A stretch of DNA of 64,000 bases from Nitrospiria bacterium (GTDB lineage: Bacteria; Nitrospirota; UBA9217), in contig CAKKPG010000132.1 in assembly GCA_919901555.1 (NCBI GenBank), forward strand, positions 13,957 through 77,956. Direction: 5' to 3'. Made by a program: the position numbers and the translations under genes. Of this stretch, positions 33,981 through 59,498 are shown piece by piece. The first letter of the stretch is position 1. Each line of letters opens with the position of its first letter. Below the pieces are notes generated by a model. The model had not been told where the DNA came from, did not search any database, and was given only the letters and a program-made list of their open reading frames with translations.

Positions 33981-34067
33981 TGGTGCCGAAGGGGGGACTC
34001 GAACCCCCACGGGAATACTCCCACTGCGCCCTGAACGCAGCGCGTCTACCAGTTCCACCACTCCGGC
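33981..34067 (-). tRNA. tRNA-Leu (anticodon CAG), 87 nt with long variable arm, CCA encoded
   Basis: Reverse complement gccggagtggtggaactggtagacgcgctgcgttcagggcgcagtgggagtattcccgtgggggttcgagtcccccttcggcacca: 7-bp acceptor stem, D-arm, anticodon stem ctgcg/cgcag with loop ttCAGgg, long extra arm, T-arm GGTTCGAGTCC. Confidence 0.85.
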
Positions 34068-51847: not shown

Positions 51848-52408
51848 TCAAGGCGTGAATACCTGCTTCTTGATCTGGTCGATGTCAGCGTCCTTGATGA
51901 ACGCGGGGATGTTGCCGTACATCGAATGGTACCCGTATCCTCCGTTCTTCAGCTCGTCGACCGCCTCTTCTTTCGACCAGTTCTGAAAAACGATCCGGTA
52001 CATGGCGCTGATCAACCCGGTCCGATCGGACCCGTGCCAGCAATGGATCAGGATGGGACCCTCGGATTCCCTGATGATCCTGAGCGCAGTGACGACGTCC
52101 CGGACCTTGATGTCCCCGGCCTCCATCTTCACCCGGTAAAGCTTCATTCCCAGCCCCTTCGCCTCGTCGTTGTCGGAATGGTAATCCCGCAGGTTCAGGA
52201 TGTTCCGGATGCCGAGTTGCTGAAGAGACCGGCACCCCTTCCGGCCCGGCTGGGCTGAACGATAGACCTTTGCATCGAGCTGATAGAAATTCTCCAGGTT
52301 CCCGGCGTTCAGCGGCTTTGCCCAGTTCTCCGGCCGGGTCTTGACCTCCCCGGCATGGAGGAGGGTGGAAACAAAAAGAAGAACGACAAAGACAACGGTC
52401 CTTTTCAT
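51848..52408 (-). CDS. Secreted dual-specificity / tyrosine protein phosphatase family protein
   Basis: 186 aa; signal peptide; CX5R P-loop HCWHGSDRTG. Confidence 0.75.
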   Translation of the reverse strand: MKRTVVFVVLLFVSTLLHAGEVKTRPENWAKPLNAGNLENFYQLDAKVYRSAQPGRKGCRSLQQLGIRNILNLRDYHSDNDEAKGLGMKLYRVKMEAGDIKVRDVVTALRIIRESEGPILIHCWHGSDRTGLISAMYRIVFQNWSKEEAVDELKNGGYGYHSMYGNIPAFIKDADIDQIKKQVFTP

Positions 52409-52450
52409 GATCGGCTGCCTCCTGACAAAGGGATTACCTGCCTGCGCACA

Positions 52451-52963
52451 TTACTTCTCTTGACAGTAACCGGTTGGATGGCGCTTCCGGTAATCTTCCC
52501 GTTTTTCGGCCGCCTGACGCTGCTCTTCCGGCGTCAGCGGCCGGTATCCCCTGCCGTACTTCCATCCGTATCCCCAGCGATACCAGGTAGGGAACGCCGG
52601 ATGTCCTCCGGCACGGACGCCCTGATACATCAGGTCCGCAAGGGCCTTGTCCCCCGTCCGCTCCCTCACGCAGGCCTGCAGCGCCTTATCGGCCAGTTTC
52701 CGTTCCTCTGCAGTGCCTCCGCGCCAATAGGCGAGGTCATGCGCAAAGCAGCATTCGCACCACAGCGTCCGGTCCTTGATGCTGCCGTCCGGAAAAAGAC
52801 TGCACCCGTCACTCGTGAAATCATGCAGGTCAGACGCGCCTGCGCAGCCGCAGGCCTGCAGCGCGAGACTCAGCGCCAGAATCCGAAGAAGGAATCGCAC
52901 GGACCTTCCCCTGTCCACCGGGCCGCCATGCAGCAGTGCATTCCACATGAAGTAAGCCCCCAA
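52451..52963 (-). CDS. Secreted hypothetical protein with a prokaryotic phospholipase-A2-like CCxxHDxxY motif
   Basis: 170 aa; LWCECCFAHDLAYWRGG resembles the catalytic His-Asp segment of bacterial secreted PLA2s (e.g. Streptomyces ACARHDFGYRNY); tentative. Confidence 0.4.
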   Translation of the reverse strand: MGAYFMWNALLHGGPVDRGRSVRFLLRILALSLALQACGCAGASDLHDFTSDGCSLFPDGSIKDRTLWCECCFAHDLAYWRGGTAEERKLADKALQACVRERTGDKALADLMYQGVRAGGHPAFPTWYRWGYGWKYGRGYRPLTPEEQRQAAEKREDYRKRHPTGYCQEK

Positions 52964-53044
52964 GGCCAGTTCTCGAAGCCTATTGCGTTTTTCTCGCGCG
53001 CGGAATCATTTACTTCTTGATCGTGGAGATCGCCGCGCCTTTGG

Positions 53045-53299
53045 TCATTTCAGCAGTTTATCATACTCCGCATGCGTTCCTATCCAGAACCACAGCAGCC
53101 CTTCATCCACTTCCACGGCAAGTGCGCGATATTTCATGCCGACTCGCACTGACCAGTACTTTCCCGTTTTCTTAATGTGGAGGGATGGATGGTGGGGATT
53201 TTCCTTCAGCAATTCAAAATTCTTGTCAGCCAGCTCTTTTATTTGATCAGGAAGTTTATTGTAGCACTCCCGGAAAGACGGGCTGGCAAGATGTCTCAT
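53045..53299 (-). CDS. ParE/RelE-superfamily type II toxin
   Basis: 84 aa, downstream of and 4-nt overlapping a 66-aa antitoxin-like gene; KYWSVRVGMKYRALAVEVDEGLLWFWIGTHAEYDKLL matches ParE/RelE family C-termini. Confidence 0.65.
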   Translation of the reverse strand: MRHLASPSFRECYNKLPDQIKELADKNFELLKENPHHPSLHIKKTGKYWSVRVGMKYRALAVEVDEGLLWFWIGTHAEYDKLLK

Positions 53300-53496
53300 A
53301 GCGGTTTAAATTTCCCTTTTTCGTAATCTTTGACTGCTCTTTCTGCAACCCTGTCGAGCCTGCCGGACTTTACGTCTTCTTCAAATTGCTTATCCCAGAA
53401 TACGGCGTCAAATTCCTCAAACCACGTCCGGAATTCTGCGAGTTCTTCCGGCGGCAAGATGGAGACCGCCTTTTCGAGTTCTTTCACCGTAATCAT
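53296..53496 (-). CDS. Type II antitoxin (small acidic protein preceding the ParE-like toxin)
   Basis: 66 aa, MITVKELEKAVSILPPEELAEFRTWFEEFD...; gene order and overlap are typical of TA pairs. Confidence 0.6.
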   Translation of the reverse strand: MITVKELEKAVSILPPEELAEFRTWFEEFDAVFWDKQFEEDVKSGRLDRVAERAVKDYEKGKFKPL

Positions 53497-53864
53497 ACTC
53501 TCACCTCGTTTCCTGATGCTTCAGATCAGGCGCTTTGTTGTTCGTGCTTTTTTGAATATAAAACGGATGCATTGCTTTGTCAAGGCATCTTTCGGCTCAG
53601 GACAGGCGGCCAGGAAGTCTCCGATGATTGATCAAAATACAAATGGCCCCTCTGCGGGGGCCATTTGATTAGGGTAATATTATTCGGGGAGTTTACCCTG
53701 AGCATCGCGTGAGATTCTTCGGGGCTCCGCCCCTCAGAATGACGGGCAAGGGATTGGAATGACACAGGAGGCTGGATTGCCACGTCACTACGCGCTTCGC
53801 AATGACAGCGTAACGGAGCTTTTTGCATTTGCCTTCATTCGTGAAAATTCATGTCAATTCTTCG

Positions 53865-54075
53865 TAAAAGATCAGCTCTTCCCTTTCCCCTTCTTCCAGG
53901 ACTCCAGCTTGTTCAGCGCGTTCACATAGGCCTTGGCACTCGCCACGATGATGTCCGTGTCGGCGCCGTGGCCGCCTACCTTTTTGCCCGCCTCCTCGAC
54001 CCTCGCAGTCACTTCGCCGAACGCGTCGGCGCCGCCGGTGATGGCTTTCACGAGATATGCGTCAAGCCTGCTGCG
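53865..54075 (-). pseudogene. Duplicated 3' fragment of leuA (encodes ~70 aa matching the LeuA C-terminus) followed by a copy of the leuA terminator at ~53645-53675
   Basis: Reverse translation gives ...[54 protein letters not shown], versus the LeuA C-terminus ...[54 protein letters not shown]. Nucleotide identity ~80% over >300 bp to 57845-58180. Confidence 0.8.
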
Positions 54076-54401
54076 GAAATAGAGAATAATGAACTCTTAA
54101 TGACAATATTCCATATTTTCATACTTATGTATTATTGACAAAGTGATGATTGTTTGATAAAAGGTAACCCAACCTTCCAACTGCCTATACATAAATGCAT
54201 TAGTGTGATTCCCCCTGAATCAGTTTGTACGCATGCTGCGTCGAAGAGTGCAACATGAACTCAGCCCATTATTGACTCGGTCAGCTATCGTACAGCCATA
54301 TATTCATAATAGCAAATGTTTTCTGTCTATTAAGCAAGAAGTCCGCAATGTCGGCGCGGCATAGTTTGATGTAAACAACTCACGGAGAAAAGGAGGCAAT
54401 C

Positions 54402-57400
54402 ATGCAAAGAATGAAAGTGCTGGTTAAAAAAGCTGGTTTCGGTTTGATTGGATTGATGGTATTCCTGATTGTTGCAAGCATGGCCATCGCAGAGGAAAGG
54501 ACGCTCGATGGACCGATCCGGGAGGTGGTAAACAGCGCAAAAGCCCGGACACTGGATGCAGCAGGCGGGGGAGCGATCGTACAGTCCGCCGTCGTCGACA
54601 GACTGAATCGCGGCGAGGAGACTGTCGACGTCATCGTTCTCCTGAAAGGATACAAAGAGTATGTCGGAAAGATCAAGGCGGACAAATCGGCGGAAATGAA
54701 GAAGTTTCAGGCGGAGATTCGTCCCAGGCAGGATGCTGTCCTGAAGCGGCTCAGCCGGTCCCAGTTCACGCCGAAGCATCGCTTCGACAATATTCTCGGC
54801 TTTGCCGGAACGGTCAGCAGGGACGGCCTTGAGGCGCTCGCGGCAATGCAGGAGGTCGAGTCCATTGAGGAAGACCAGAAAGTCGAGGCCCATCTGGCCC
54901 AGGGCATTCCCCTGATGAACGGATCTCATGTGCGGTCGTCCTATGACGGCGCCGGAGTATCAATTGCAATTACGGATACCGGCATCGATTACACGCACCC
55001 GATGCTCGGCGGCGCGGCCTTTCCCAATGCCAAGGTGATCGGCGGATATGACTTCGGCGACAGCGACGCCGACCCCATGGACTGCCAGGGACACGGCACC
55101 TCGGTGGCCGGGATTGCGGCCGGGACAGCCGCAGCCGGACCGGGCGACTACATCGGCGGTGTGGCCCCTAACGCGAGGCTGTACGCCCTGAAGATCGTCG
55201 CCGGCTGCAGTGGTTCGTCTGCCTTTTCGACCATCGCGGCTGCCTGGGACTGGGCGGTATCGCACAAAAATGACGACCCTGCCAACCCGATCCTGGCGAT
55301 CAACACGAGTTTCGGCGGCGGATACTACACCGCGGCCTGCGATGCCTCCATACCGACGATTGCTGCCGCTGCCAATAACGCGGCCGCGAACGGAATCACG
55401 CTCTTTTCGTCATCAGGAAATGACGGCTTTTCCGACGGCATGGGCGCGCCTGCCTGTGTATCGAATTCCCTTTCCGTGGGCGCCGTATACGATGCGAACA
55501 TCGGTTCCCGATACTGGTCCCCCTGCACCGACCTGATGACGGCGCCTGACCAGGTTACGTGTTATTCCAACAGCGCCAATTTTCTGAATATCCTGGCGCC
55601 GAGCAACGACGCCTACACCACGGCGGTCGGCGGCGGATACCGGACGAATTTTGGCGGCACGTCGGCAGCATCCCCCTATTCAGCCGGGGCCGGGGCTGTT
55701 TTGCAGAGCTACGCCAAAAAAACGGCAGGACATTACTACAGCGCGGCAGAGTTGAGGGCGCGCCTGATCAGCACCGGAGACCCGGTCATTGATCCGAAGA
55801 ACGGGATCACGAAACCGCGCGTGAACATCGGCGTTGCCGCAGTCCAGCTTGAACAGACACCGTGGAAGACGAACGAGAACGGCACGGTCGCGACCGATGT
55901 CGCCTGGAATTACACCATGGGATATCATTTTACTCCTGTCAAAGACGGCCATATCCGCTGGCTGGGCGGATACTTTAACGGGACCAAGACCGTCTCTCTC
56001 TGGAACAAGGCGACGGGAGCGCTGCTCGCATCGGCCGTGGTGACATCCTCCAACGGATGGGGCTATACGGCTATCAAGGCAGTGCCCGTCACCGCGGGAA
56101 CCACCTATACCGTGGCCGTGTATCTCGGCGGGAGCGGCGGGAGCTATCGATACAACATTGCTCCCCTCCCCGACACCTACGGCGACGTCACGATAAACGG
56201 CTCAACGTATATTGCCGGAAATGCGCGGCCGACGAACACCTACACCACCTATATGTTCGGCCAGGCGGACTTCGGCTATGTGCCGGCTTCCGTGCAGACG
56301 CCGTGGCTCACGAACGAGAACGGCACGCTCGTGACCGATATCGCATGGGATTACACCATGGGATACAACTTTACCCCTCGTAAAGACGGACAGATCACGA
56401 GGCTCAGCGGGTATTTCAACGGCGCCAAAACCGTCTCGCTCTGGAATAAGGCGACCGGTGAACTGCTGGCACAGCAGAACGTAACGTCGAGCAACAACTG
56501 GAGCTCTGTTGATATCGACCCCGTGCTCTTAAACGCCGGCGTCACCTATACCGTGGCCGTCTACCTGGGAGGGAGCGGCGGAAGCTATCGGTCCGGCATT
56601 GCCGCATTTCCGCAGACCTACGGGGACATCACAATCGAAGGCTCTGCGTGGCTTTTCGGCAACGGCCGGCCGACCAATAATTATGCATCCATAATGTACG
56701 GCCAGGTCGACGTCGGTTTCTCCGCCTTCTCCGGCCAGACGCCCTGGAAGCGAAATGAGAACGGCACACTCGTAACGGATATTGCCTGGGATTACACCAT
56801 GGGATACCACTTTACGCCCAAGCGAAGCGGCACCATCACGTGGCTCGGCGGATATTTCAACGGGACCAAAACGGTTTATCTCTGGAACAAATCCACAGGC
56901 GCCCTGCTCGCACAGGCAACGGTGTCGTCAGCCAACGGTTGGGGGTATGCCAATATCGATCCCGTGCGCGTAACGGCCGGGACGACCTATACCGTGGCCG
57001 TCTATCTGGCCGGAAGCGGCGGAAGCTATCGATACAGCATCACCGCATTGCCGCAGACCTATGGAGACATCACCATTGAAGGCACGACATGGCTCGTCGG
57101 GAACGGAAGACCTACCATCGACTATGCTTACAACATGTACGGCCAGATGGACATCGGGTTTGTCCCCGACAGCAGTCAGACGCCGTGGATGAACAACGAG
57201 AACGGCACGCTGGTAACGGATATCGCCTGGGATTATACGATGGGATATCATTTCATACCGGCGAGAAATGGGACCATTTCGAGACTAGGCGGGTATTTCA
57301 ACGGCGCGAAGACCGTCTCTCTCTGGGACACCGCCACGGGAACGCTGCTCGCCCAGGCGCCGGTGACCTCCTCCAACGCCTGGAGCTATGTGGGAATATC

Positions 57401-57611
57401 TCCGGTCTCCGTGACGGCCGGGACGACTTACACGGTGGCCGTCTATCTGGGGGGGGGCGGCGGGAGCTATCGGTACGGAATTTCGACGTTCCCCCAGACG
57501 TACGAAGACGTCACAATCACCGGTTCAACGTGGCTGTCCGGCAACGGGCGGCCCACGAATACGATAACGACGTACATGTACGGCCAGGTCGACGTGGAGT
57601 TTGAGCCGTAG
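54402..57611 (+). CDS. Secreted subtilisin-like serine peptidase (S8) with propeptide and four C-terminal ~147-aa tandem repeat domains
   Basis: 1069 aa; signal peptide; catalytic triad contexts AITDTGID (Asp), HGTSVAG (His), GGTSAASP (Ser); four repeats starting QTPW(K/L/M).NENGT.VTDIAW.YTMGY.FTP..G.I..L.GYFNG.KTVSLWN..TG.LLA...V.S.N.W...I.PV.V.AG.TYTVAVYLGGSGGSYR..I...P.TYGD.TI.GS.W..GNGRPT (nucleotide period ~441 bp; 55854-57608). Confidence 0.85.
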   Translation: MQRMKVLVKKAGFGLIGLMVFLIVASMAIAEERTLDGPIREVVNSAKARTLDAAGGGAIVQSAVVDRLNRGEETVDVIVLLKGYKEYVGKIKADKSAEMKKFQAEIRPRQDAVLKRLSRSQFTPKHRFDNILGFAGTVSRDGLEALAAMQEVESIEEDQKVEAHLAQGIPLMNGSHVRSSYDGAGVSIAITDTGIDYTHPMLGGAAFPNAKVIGGYDFGDSDADPMDCQGHGTSVAGIAAGTAAAGPGDYIGGVAPNARLYALKIVAGCSGSSAFSTIAAAWDWAVSHKNDDPANPILAINTSFGGGYYTAACDASIPTIAAAANNAAANGITLFSSSGNDGFSDGMGAPACVSNSLSVGAVYDANIGSRYWSPCTDLMTAPDQVTCYSNSANFLNILAPSNDAYTTAVGGGYRTNFGGTSAASPYSAGAGAVLQSYAKKTAGHYYSAAELRARLISTGDPVIDPKNGITKPRVNIGVAAVQLEQTPWKTNENGTVATDVAWNYTMGYHFTPVKDGHIRWLGGYFNGTKTVSLWNKATGALLASAVVTSSNGWGYTAIKAVPVTAGTTYTVAVYLGGSGGSYRYNIAPLPDTYGDVTINGSTYIAGNARPTNTYTTYMFGQADFGYVPASVQTPWLTNENGTLVTDIAWDYTMGYNFTPRKDGQITRLSGYFNGAKTVSLWNKATGELLAQQNVTSSNNWSSVDIDPVLLNAGVTYTVAVYLGGSGGSYRSGIAAFPQTYGDITIEGSAWLFGNGRPTNNYASIMYGQVDVGFSAFSGQTPWKRNENGTLVTDIAWDYTMGYHFTPKRSGTITWLGGYFNGTKTVYLWNKSTGALLAQATVSSANGWGYANIDPVRVTAGTTYTVAVYLAGSGGSYRYSITALPQTYGDITIEGTTWLVGNGRPTIDYAYNMYGQMDIGFVPDSSQTPWMNNENGTLVTDIAWDYTMGYHFIPARNGTISRLGGYFNGAKTVSLWDTATGTLLAQAPVTSSNAWSYVGISPVSVTAGTTYTVAVYLGGGGGSYRYGISTFPQTYEDVTITGSTWLSGNGRPTNTITTYMYGQVDVEFEP

Positions 57612-57850
57612 GACGTTGAAGTGAGGGGTCGGAAAGGGCTCAAACTGACTCTTGAGAACGGGAGACGCTGAATCTCCTGTCGGTAGAAAAAATCGAAAGC
57701 AGGCATGACCTGCCCCTCCTGTGGTTCACGCCGCAGGAGAGGCAGGGATTTTTTACGCAGGAACACAGAGTCACCTATTAATCTATCAGCGTCATTGCCG
57801 CTGCCGATCCTGAAGTTATTCTCCGGGATTACCGTTCTCTGATCGTTTCT

Positions 57851-57880
57851 TAAAAAAATGGCCCCGCAAGGGGGGCCATG
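57851..57880 (-). terminator. Rho-independent terminator of leuA (GGCCCCCCTTGCGGGGCC hairpin followed by a T-run on the minus strand)
   Basis: Plus strand aaaaaaatggccccgcaaggggggccat; reads as hairpin + TTTTTTT on the coding strand of leuA. Confidence 0.65.
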
Positions 57881-57971
57881 TGATTAGTGGGTCAGATGCG
57901 GGATTCTTCGCTTCGCTCAGAATGACAACATGACTACGCTTTGTTCATTCGCGTCAATTCGCGGCGGAAAA

Positions 57972-59498
57972 TCAGCTTTTCCCCTTCCCCTTCTTCCAGT
58001 ACTCCAGCTTGTTCAAGGCATTCACGTACGCCTTGGCGCTGGCGACAATAATGTCCGTGTCCGCGCCGTGGCCGGTGGCCTTCTTGCCGCCTTCCTCGAG
58101 CTTCACTGTCACCTCACCGAGAGCGTCCGTGCCGCCGGTGATGCCCTTGACGAGATAGGCGTCAAGCTTGCTCTTTGTATTGGTGATGGCGGCGATCGTC
58201 TTGTACACCGCATCCACCTGACCGTCGCCGTGGCCCGTCTGCTTGTCGGATTTGCCGTTAATCTCCATCTCCACCGTGGCCGTGGGTGTAACGCCCGTGC
58301 CGCTTTCGGCCCGGAGGCTTTTCAGGATATAGACTTCCTTAATATGCTGCACTTCGTCCGAGATGATTGCTTCAAGGTCTTCATCGAAGACCTCTTTCTT
58401 CTGGTCCGCAAGCCGCTTGAACCGCTCGAAGGCCCTGTTCAGGTCCTCGTCCGAAAGCTCGTACCCGATCTCCTTGAGCCGGTCGCGGAAGGCGTGCCTG
58501 CCTGAGTGCTTGCCCAGAACAAGATTCGTTTTCACCAGACCGATGGACTCCGGCCGCATGATCTCATAGGTAGTCCGTTCCTTCAAGAGCCCGTCCTGGT
58601 GGATTCCGGATTCATGCGCGAACGCATTCGCGCCCACGATCGCCTTGTTCGGCTGCACCTGAATGCCCGTGATCTTCGTCACGAGCCTGCTCGAGCGGAT
58701 GATCTCCTCGCTGTGGATTCCGGTATCGGCGTTAAAGAAATCCTTCCTCGTACGCAGCGCCATCACCACCTCTTCCAAAGAGCAGTTGCCTGCCCGCTCG
58801 CCGATGCCGTTGATGGTGCACTCCACCTGTGTCGCGCCGTTCCGGATGGCAGAGAGCACATTCGCGACAGCCAAGCCAAGGTCATTGTGGCAGTGAACGG
58901 AGATCGTAGCCTTATCGATATTTTTGACCCTGGTCTTGATCTCTTTAATGAGCGCGCCGAACTCCTCGGGCATGGCATAGCCCACCGTATCGGGAATGTT
59001 CACGGTCGAAGCGCCTGCCGCGATCACGGCTTCCACCACCTCAAGGAGGTATGTCACATCGGTCCGCGTGGCATCCATGGGCGAGAACTCCACGTCCTCC
59101 ACGTAGGACCGGGCATGCGTGACCATGTCCACGGAACGCTTGAGCGCTTCCTCGCGCGAAATCCGGTACTGATGCTTCAAATGGATATCGGACGTCGAGT
59201 GGAAGGTGTGGATACGTTTCTTCGGCGCGTCCTTGAGCGCTTCCCAGGCGCGGTCGATGTCTTCCTTTTTCGCCCGTGCGAGACTGCAGATCACCGGCCC
59301 TTCCACTTCGGCGCCGATCCGTTTGATGGCCTCGAAGTCGCCGGGCGAGCTGATGGCGAACCCGGCCTCGATGATGTCCACCCCCAGCCGGGCGAGCTGC
59401 TTTGCGAGGGTGATCTTCTCCTCGACGTTCATGCTCGCGCCCGGGGACTGCTCACCGTCGCGGAGCGTGGTATCGAATATTTTGATGGTCCTGCTCAT
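57972..59498 (-). CDS. leuA: 2-isopropylmalate synthase
   Basis: 508 aa; IFDTTLRDGEQSPGASM, HCHNDLGLAVAN, C-terminal LeuA regulatory domain. Confidence 0.9.
   Translation of the reverse strand: MSRTIKIFDTTLRDGEQSPGASMNVEEKITLAKQLARLGVDIIEAGFAISSPGDFEAIKRIGAEVEGPVICSLARAKKEDIDRAWEALKDAPKKRIHTFHSTSDIHLKHQYRISREEALKRSVDMVTHARSYVEDVEFSPMDATRTDVTYLLEVVEAVIAAGASTVNIPDTVGYAMPEEFGALIKEIKTRVKNIDKATISVHCHNDLGLAVANVLSAIRNGATQVECTINGIGERAGNCSLEEVVMALRTRKDFFNADTGIHSEEIIRSSRLVTKITGIQVQPNKAIVGANAFAHESGIHQDGLLKERTTYEIMRPESIGLVKTNLVLGKHSGRHAFRDRLKEIGYELSDEDLNRAFERFKRLADQKKEVFDEDLEAIISDEVQHIKEVYILKSLRAESGTGVTPTATVEMEINGKSDKQTGHGDGQVDAVYKTIAAITNTKSKLDAYLVKGITGGTDALGEVTVKLEEGGKKATGHGADTDIIVASAKAYVNALNKLEYWKKGKGKS

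Follow-up and report, generated by a model that had tools for sequence, protein, structure and literature searches.

Results

The protease gene and its repeats

Within a 64,000-nucleotide stretch of a Nitrospiria genome (GenBank assembly GCA_919901555.1, contig CAKKPG010000132.1; the whole stretch is called the window here, and all positions refer to it) lies a gene for a serine protease of family S8, a subtilase, which ends in four tandem copies of a domain of about 147 amino acids (Table 1). We call these copies R1 to R4. They belong to DUF4082, a domain family without an assigned function, and may well form a multivalent tail that targets the secreted protease to a substrate or a surface.

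The part upstream of the repeats agrees with what the first-pass annotation had proposed, a secreted S8 subtilase. The propeptide and the catalytic domain score above their Pfam cut-offs, and the subtilase motifs are intact: DTGID (D192), HGTSV (H231), SSGNDG (N340) and GTSAA (S421). The Asp-His-Ser triad D192/H231/S421 stands in the expected order and N340 supplies the oxyanion asparagine. Secretion is predicted from the N-terminus, MQRMKVLVKKAGFGLIGLMVFLIVASMAIA followed by EE, which by eye resembles a Sec signal peptide. According to the Pfam scan and the sequence, neither end of the protein carries an anchor signal (lipobox, PEP-CTERM, LPXTG or T9SS tail). The chain terminates in VDVEFEP, the end of R4, and no residues follow. 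Two further assemblies encode an identical protein (P0001).

Table 1. Features of the protease gene, with positions in the window
Feature	Position	Strand	Basis
Shine-Dalgarno sequence AAGGAGG	54390..54396	+	read from sequence; 5 nt 5' of ATG, AT-rich spacer
Whole gene, pre-pro-subtilase with four C-terminal DUF4082 units	54402..57611	+	open reading frame list; 1069 aa + stop
Predicted Sec signal peptide, aa 1-30	54402..54491	+	inspection only; cleavage motif AIA followed by EE, no lipobox Cys
Inhibitor_I9 propeptide, aa 102-164	54705..54893	+	Pfam PF05922, 29.0 bits (cut-off 21.2)
Peptidase_S8 catalytic domain, aa 183-459	54948..55778	+	Pfam PF00082, 109.3 bits (cut-off 21.8)
R1, DUF4082-like, aa 485-631, 147 aa	55854..56294	+	65-70% aa identity to R2-R4
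R2, DUF4082, aa 632-778, 147 aa	56295..56735	+	PF13313, 39.6 bits
R3, DUF4082, aa 779-925, 147 aa	56736..57176	+	PF13313, 44.1 bits
R4, DUF4082, aa 926-1069, 144 aa	57177..57608	+	PF13313, 38.6 bits; no sorting tail

Every unit opens with QTPW, and the units abut head to tail with no linker at all. Tandem Repeats Finder reports a single array (55854-57518, period 441, 3.8 copies, 72% matches, score 1119). Together with the protein alignment it confirms exactly the coordinates, length and copy number first proposed, four units of about 147 amino acids at 55854-57608. The units are rich in aromatic residues (W+Y+F make up 14.4%, compared with 8.5% for the catalytic domain) and lack cysteine. Antisense and out-of-frame open reading frames overlap the array, for example 56529-56810 (-), 56928-57251 (-) and 57089-57604 (+); we rejected these as genes because they are artefacts of the repeated reading frame.

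A concern with any such array is that the assembly might have collapsed or expanded it. We reject this for the present array, since two other contigs agree on four units. A contig from ENA (coverage 37) and a Logan contig both encode the identical protein and differ from the window by two synonymous single-nucleotide polymorphisms, at 54687 and 56225. Furthermore, the units are about 28% apart in DNA, so that an assembler would not collapse them. The sample of the matching contig is labelled Hain_H41_01um, which we take to be Hainich groundwater.

The array is diverged and conserved by position

In pairwise comparisons the units share 65-72% of their amino acids and 70-73% of their nucleotides; the DNA identity of about 80% originally given for the repeats was too high. 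Third codon positions are only 47-58% identical. Between units dS is saturated (0.95-1.6) and dN/dS ranges from 0.13 to 0.28. Each unit is under purifying selection.

The whole architecture is shared with only three other proteins among 5.8 billion: P0002, which has four units and is 69% identical to the window protein, and P0003 and P0004, which have three units each. Neighbour joining places R1, R2 and R3 of the window protein each with the unit at the same position in P0003 and P0004. R4 lies nearest to P0002_R4 and P0002_R2, and by identity its closest relative outside its own protein is P0002_R4 (71%). Because units group by position across homologues and not within a protein, the array predates these lineages and shows no concerted evolution.

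It had been suggested that the repeats set up recombinational variation in copy number. One could go further and argue that the array is a contingency locus, whose repeats are mainly a substrate for frequent, recombination-driven changes in copy number. Part of this stands, as homologues carry either three or four units. Copy number has hence changed, but rarely, and a recombination-prone array finds no support, for the following reasons. First, at 70-73% DNA identity the longest exact run common to any pair of units is 16-21 nt. The minimum for efficient RecA-mediated recombination is usually quoted as about 20-30 bp, and the shared runs are at or under that length. Second, dS between units is saturated. 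Third, units are orthologous by position between proteins, and the same four units are found in three assemblies of this population. A contingency locus is thus extremely improbable. Judged from these sequence comparisons, the array is old and held by selection.

The units belong to DUF4082

The first reading of the DNA had considered a DUF4082-like domain, and hidden Markov model (HMM) scans of single repeats bear this out. Scanned singly, R2, R3 and R4 all exceed the gathering threshold of PF13313 (28.4 bits), and they cover positions 14-138 (R2 and R4) or 14-104 (R3) of the 143 positions in the domain model. R1 scanned alone has no Pfam DUF4082 match. It scores 246 bits against a profile of the family that we built from an alignment (A1) that includes R1 itself, and we assign it to DUF4082 because of its identity to the other units and because it has the same predicted fold.

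Scans of the whole protein against Pfam and NCBIfam give no DUF4082 match, although three units pass the threshold alone. The precomputed annotations of P0001 and P0003 lack PF13313 as well; true domain matches can go missing in repetitive proteins. Of 102 sampled relatives PF13313 recognises 61, hence the Pfam model is weak for this subfamily. With many members overlooked by the model, this protein among them if scanned in one piece, automated annotation under-reports DUF4082. That the domain has no assigned function holds as first noted: it is still a DUF in the 2025 copy of Pfam. The searchable literature mentions DUF4082 only incidentally, in two papers, and no paper in it cites PF13313 or IPR025141.

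Predicted fold and structural neighbours

From an alignment of 23 sequences AlphaFold2 predicts an all-beta structure for R3 (pLDDT 96.0, pTM 0.91), a confident model that is in line with the beta-sandwich proposed for the repeat at the outset. In an AlphaFold model of all four units each unit, including R1, has the same predicted topology (pLDDT 90, pTM 0.63). The lower pTM suggests that the domains line up on a string, with relative orientations that are defined only in part.

When the PDB was searched by sequence, neither the four units nor the family profile gave a significant hit; the top one, a glutamate receptor at E 0.1, is a chance match. With Foldseek the best PDB match to the R3 model is the PHR domain of BTBD2 (query TM-score, TMq, 0.61; E 5e-5; root-mean-square deviation 5.9 Å). 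Other leading matches are a minor capsid protein of PBCV-1 and the central fibre of mycobacteriophage Douge. A search of predicted viral structures returned phage minor-tail, tail-fibre and collagen-repeat proteins (TMq 0.5-0.69). A PHROGs scan yielded nothing significant, and the four-unit model told us little when it was compared with the PDB by Foldseek (TMq at most 0.18).

The HMM TIGR03721, which describes the C-terminal domain of BclB-related exosporium glycoproteins, matches R2-R4 weakly and in register (E 3.6e-5 to 6e-3). At 16.6-23.9 bits per unit and 39.7 bits for the whole protein these matches are far below the cut-off of 93.15, and the protein does not belong to that family. Collagen-like GXX repeats are absent from the protein sequence.

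These neighbours raise the question of whether the units self-associate like TNF/C1q-type fibre heads, or form a rigid stalk, and so give rise to a protease-decorated surface layer or a multimer. Among the fold neighbours are collagen-repeat proteins and the trimeric heads at the distal ends of phage fibres, the matches to the BclB C-terminal domain point the same way even though they are below threshold, and the units abut without linkers. However, neither end of the protein has an anchor and the chain stops at the last unit. Moreover, copy numbers across the family range from 1 to 15, often with Ig spacers, which does not fit a fixed oligomeric unit. We therefore give self-association very little credence. 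A pseudo-trimer built from three of the units was considered and is unsupported, given family copy numbers of 1-15 and the spacers between copies.

A widespread domain with exchangeable partners

An exhaustive profile search of 1.84 billion cluster representatives recovered 1207 matches at E<=1e-3, of which 249 have E<=1e-30. The larger number counts representative clusters at 50% identity and is a lower bound for this DUF4082 subfamily alone. Among the best ~160 proteins, single copies are commonest (105); 31 carry two copies, 14 three, seven four and one fifteen. In many multi-copy relatives the last copy is the end of the chain, and many alternate copies with spacers of about 100 amino acids. 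The protein with fifteen copies, P0152, is a giant of 7104 amino acids in which the copies follow a repeating super-unit pattern.

The 102 relatives scanned with Pfam mostly combine the domain with PKD/PKD_4, He_PIG, Big_9, cadherin-like, CARDB and fn3 domains, and also with a T9SS sorting domain. Peptidase partners are S8 (nine), C25 (six) and C1 (one), and P0123 also bears a fragment of an HExxH metalloprotease. We regard the domain as a mobile extracellular module of secreted and surface proteins. It is spread over many lineages: a search of genome contigs with a single peptide pattern, which does not recover the present genome, found 12 loci, all in metagenome-assembled genomes, from Acidobacteriota, Planctomycetota, Omnitrophota, Myxococcota, Bdellovibrionota, Methylomonas and Verrucomicrobiota.

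Fusions of an S8 protease to a DUF4082 tail are an already known kind of protein, as they occur in at least nine other representative clusters. This count is taken from the Pfam scans; a phmmer search with the catalytic domain for further fusions found only P0214 besides the close homologues. Proteins whose catalytic domains are closest to this one (57-74% identity) have CARDB, dockerin, PPC, CBM9-like, RCC1 or FG-GAP tails instead. Hence, it is the tail that is exchangeable.

Could DUF4082 be an unrecognised family of carbohydrate-binding modules (CBMs) that docks the protease on a polysaccharide, such as cell wall, exopolysaccharide (EPS) or capsule? Several observations are compatible with this. 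The predicted beta-sandwich and the high aromatic content would suit a CBM, structures of CBM6, CBM35 and an esterase CBM appear in the Foldseek list, and a few family members bear GH2_C, GH72 or PL8 domains. The units also weakly resemble phage fibre heads and the head-spike fibre domain of gene transfer agents, and such fibre heads often bind surface glycans. However, the fold matches to CBM6 and CBM35 are poor (TMq 0.26-0.34, E ~7e-3 to 4e-2) and show no close similarity. Pfam scans of the whole protein and of single units matched no CBM family at E<=10. Finally, only about 9 of the 102 relatives have a carbohydrate-active domain (GH2_C in five, GH72 in three and PL8 in one), mostly with weak E-values, whereas Ig, PKD and cadherin domains and peptidases dominate. 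The latter partners speak for a module with a general role in adhesion or targeting, and less for a classical CBM, which we consider unlikely.

Genomic neighbourhood

The protease gene sits in an insertion inside the ilv/leu cluster and is flanked on each side by a copy of the leuA 3' end. A relic consisting of the last 67 codons and spacer lies at 53775-54072 (-), and the intact leuA 3' end at 57947-58172 (-). The relic is 85% identical over 298 nt to the leuA 3' end and spacer of a Nitrospirota relative (L016; GCA_040960975.1, 10001-13753, compared with 51848-59498 of the window). The intact leuA 3' end is only about 80% identical to the relic or to the relative's leuA. It looks as if an insertion of about 3.9 kb had carried its own leuA 3' end with it. 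The LeuA protein encoded next to the protease is 100% identical to one from a metagenome-assembled Nitrospirota genome.

The relative, whose LeuA is 90% identical, has no protease gene here; directly after its leuA come a toxin-antitoxin pair and the genes for a 165-aa protein and for a phosphatase. The toxin-antitoxin pairs differ: the relative has DUF2281/PemK, and the window has a ParE-like gene, at 53045-53299 (-), whose partner is 66 aa long. The three homologues P0002 (L003), P0004 (L017) and P0003 (L018) share a conserved neighbourhood unlike that of the window, with Rieske, cytochrome b, multihaem cytochrome and CstA genes upstream and MscS and/or a radical-SAM/SPASM protein downstream. 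The GC content of the protease gene matches that of the genome. The insertion site, the relative without the gene, the neighbourhoods of the homologues and the matching GC content together indicate that the protease gene is an accessory gene that moved here, and that its source was probably a related organism.

The protease stop and the leuA stop are separated by a convergent spacer of 360 nt, which contains two terminator-like hairpins at 57858-57879 and 57696-57716 (-). Overlapping the first hairpin, 36 nt at 57852-57887 are 92% identical to the relative's spacer downstream of leuA. The only Rfam match in the window is a tRNA gene at 33984-34067 (-).

Discussion

We think the odds are slightly in favor of the repeats being a multivalent tail through which a secreted protease is targeted, or adheres, to a substrate or surface. 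The protein would be exported through Sec as a pre-pro-subtilase, composed of a signal peptide, an I9 propeptide that may act as chaperone and inhibitor, and the S8 catalytic domain. Its C-terminal half consists of four DUF4082 modules with a predicted beta-sandwich fold. The modules are most likely non-catalytic, and this tail would hold the protease on an insoluble substrate or on the surface of a cell or particle. Tethering could raise the local enzyme concentration and prevent wash-out in groundwater. Avidity could come from having four consecutive binding units that are similar without being identical. Here, we infer that the domain binds, what its ligand would be and that the tail is retained on the mature enzyme.

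A targeting or adhesion tail is the best explanation for a combination of features. Selection acts on every unit, the composition is rich in aromatic residues and free of cysteine, and the fold points to kinship with interaction domains and fibre heads. The partner domains in the family and the lack of a C-terminal anchor signal fit as well. There is also precedent for this layout among S8 proteases with beta-sandwich C-terminal domains. The C-terminal extension of the halolysin SptA binds insoluble protein substrate and/or adds stability (PMC3158780). MCP-01's PKD domain, the beta-jelly-roll domain of TSS and PPC domains are likewise C-terminal and bind substrate and/or stabilise the enzyme (PMC11294657).

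Several points weigh against a targeting tail. No solved structure is a sequence relative of the domain, and the best fold match in the PDB is a modest one. Residues invariant across the family are mostly glycines, prolines and core hydrophobics plus one aspartate (D139), with no obvious signature of a ligand site. Binding data for DUF4082 proteins are absent from the searchable literature. The precedents are mixed too, as the beta-jelly-roll domain of myroicolsin does not bind substrate and the PPC domain of TSS is cleaved off at maturation (PMC11294657). Lastly, Nitrospirota cells are diderm, and the protein would have to get through their outer membrane as well.

One could also argue that the repeats stabilise the catalytic domain or aid maturation or secretion, and might be clipped off after export. 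C-terminal domains of this kind are known to give stability, to aid propeptide cleavage or to be removed at maturation (PMC11294657, PMC3158780). It is quite unlikely that the same applies here. The model of the unit bears little resemblance to the C-terminal domain of Tk-SP (3afg/9ues; TMq only 0.35-0.38 over ~92-136 aligned columns). Four separately conserved copies exceed what stabilisation would need, and the same domain occurs in many adhesin-like proteins that are not proteases, once in 15 copies. The pTM of the four-unit model suggests a string of domains and not a cap.

A bolder version of the targeting tail is conceivable, although we have more doubts about it than confidence in it. 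DUF4082 may be a hitherto overlooked family of glycan- or surface-recognition modules, descended from the same ancestor as BclB-type spore-coat proteins and as the heads with which phage fibres bind receptors. Such modules would be used in tandem, in many phyla, on secreted proteases and giant adhesins, and would provide multivalent, specific attachment to cells or organic particles. If this were true, then the protease of this Nitrospirota would have a defined surface of biological origin as its target.

As a modular secreted protease the protein is routine, and real interest attaches only to the open function of its domain. The DUF4082 family is large, occurs in uncultured bacteria of many phyla on proteases and adhesin-like proteins, and has neither a solved structure nor an assigned function. 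For expression and binding screens, the four-unit array provides a confident model and domains with clean boundaries. A ligand, if found, would show which particulate or cell-surface material groundwater bacteria attack with tethered proteases.

How does the tail compare to known systems? Units R2-R4 match nearly the whole PF13313 model, and they agree with DUF4082 in their size of about 145 amino acids and in occurring in secreted multidomain bacterial proteins. They differ in forming a subfamily of their own, which the Pfam model picks up poorly, and the family has no function or solved structure that could be inherited. PHR domains (BTBD2, 3no8; MYCBP2, 3hwj) are beta-sandwiches of similar size, and 3no8_A is the top fold match among solved structures. 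However, identity is 15% and the sequence searches give no match to the units, and PHR domains are found inside eukaryotic cells; the two are alike in fold only. Phage fibre heads and TIGR03721 proteins are similar to the units in the Foldseek matches and in the weak HMM matches of R2-R4. In contrast to them, our units have no collagen-like or fibre shaft and stand in tandem on an enzyme, not at the tip of a trimeric fibre. The closest parallel in overall layout is provided by the S8 subtilases MCP-01, TSS/Tk-SP and SptA, which share the signal peptide, the N-terminal propeptide, the S8 domain and one or more beta-rich C-terminal domains. The tail family differs, as Pfam finds no PKD, PPC or P-domain in the present protein, and where those proteases carry one or two C-terminal modules, this one carries four tandem copies.

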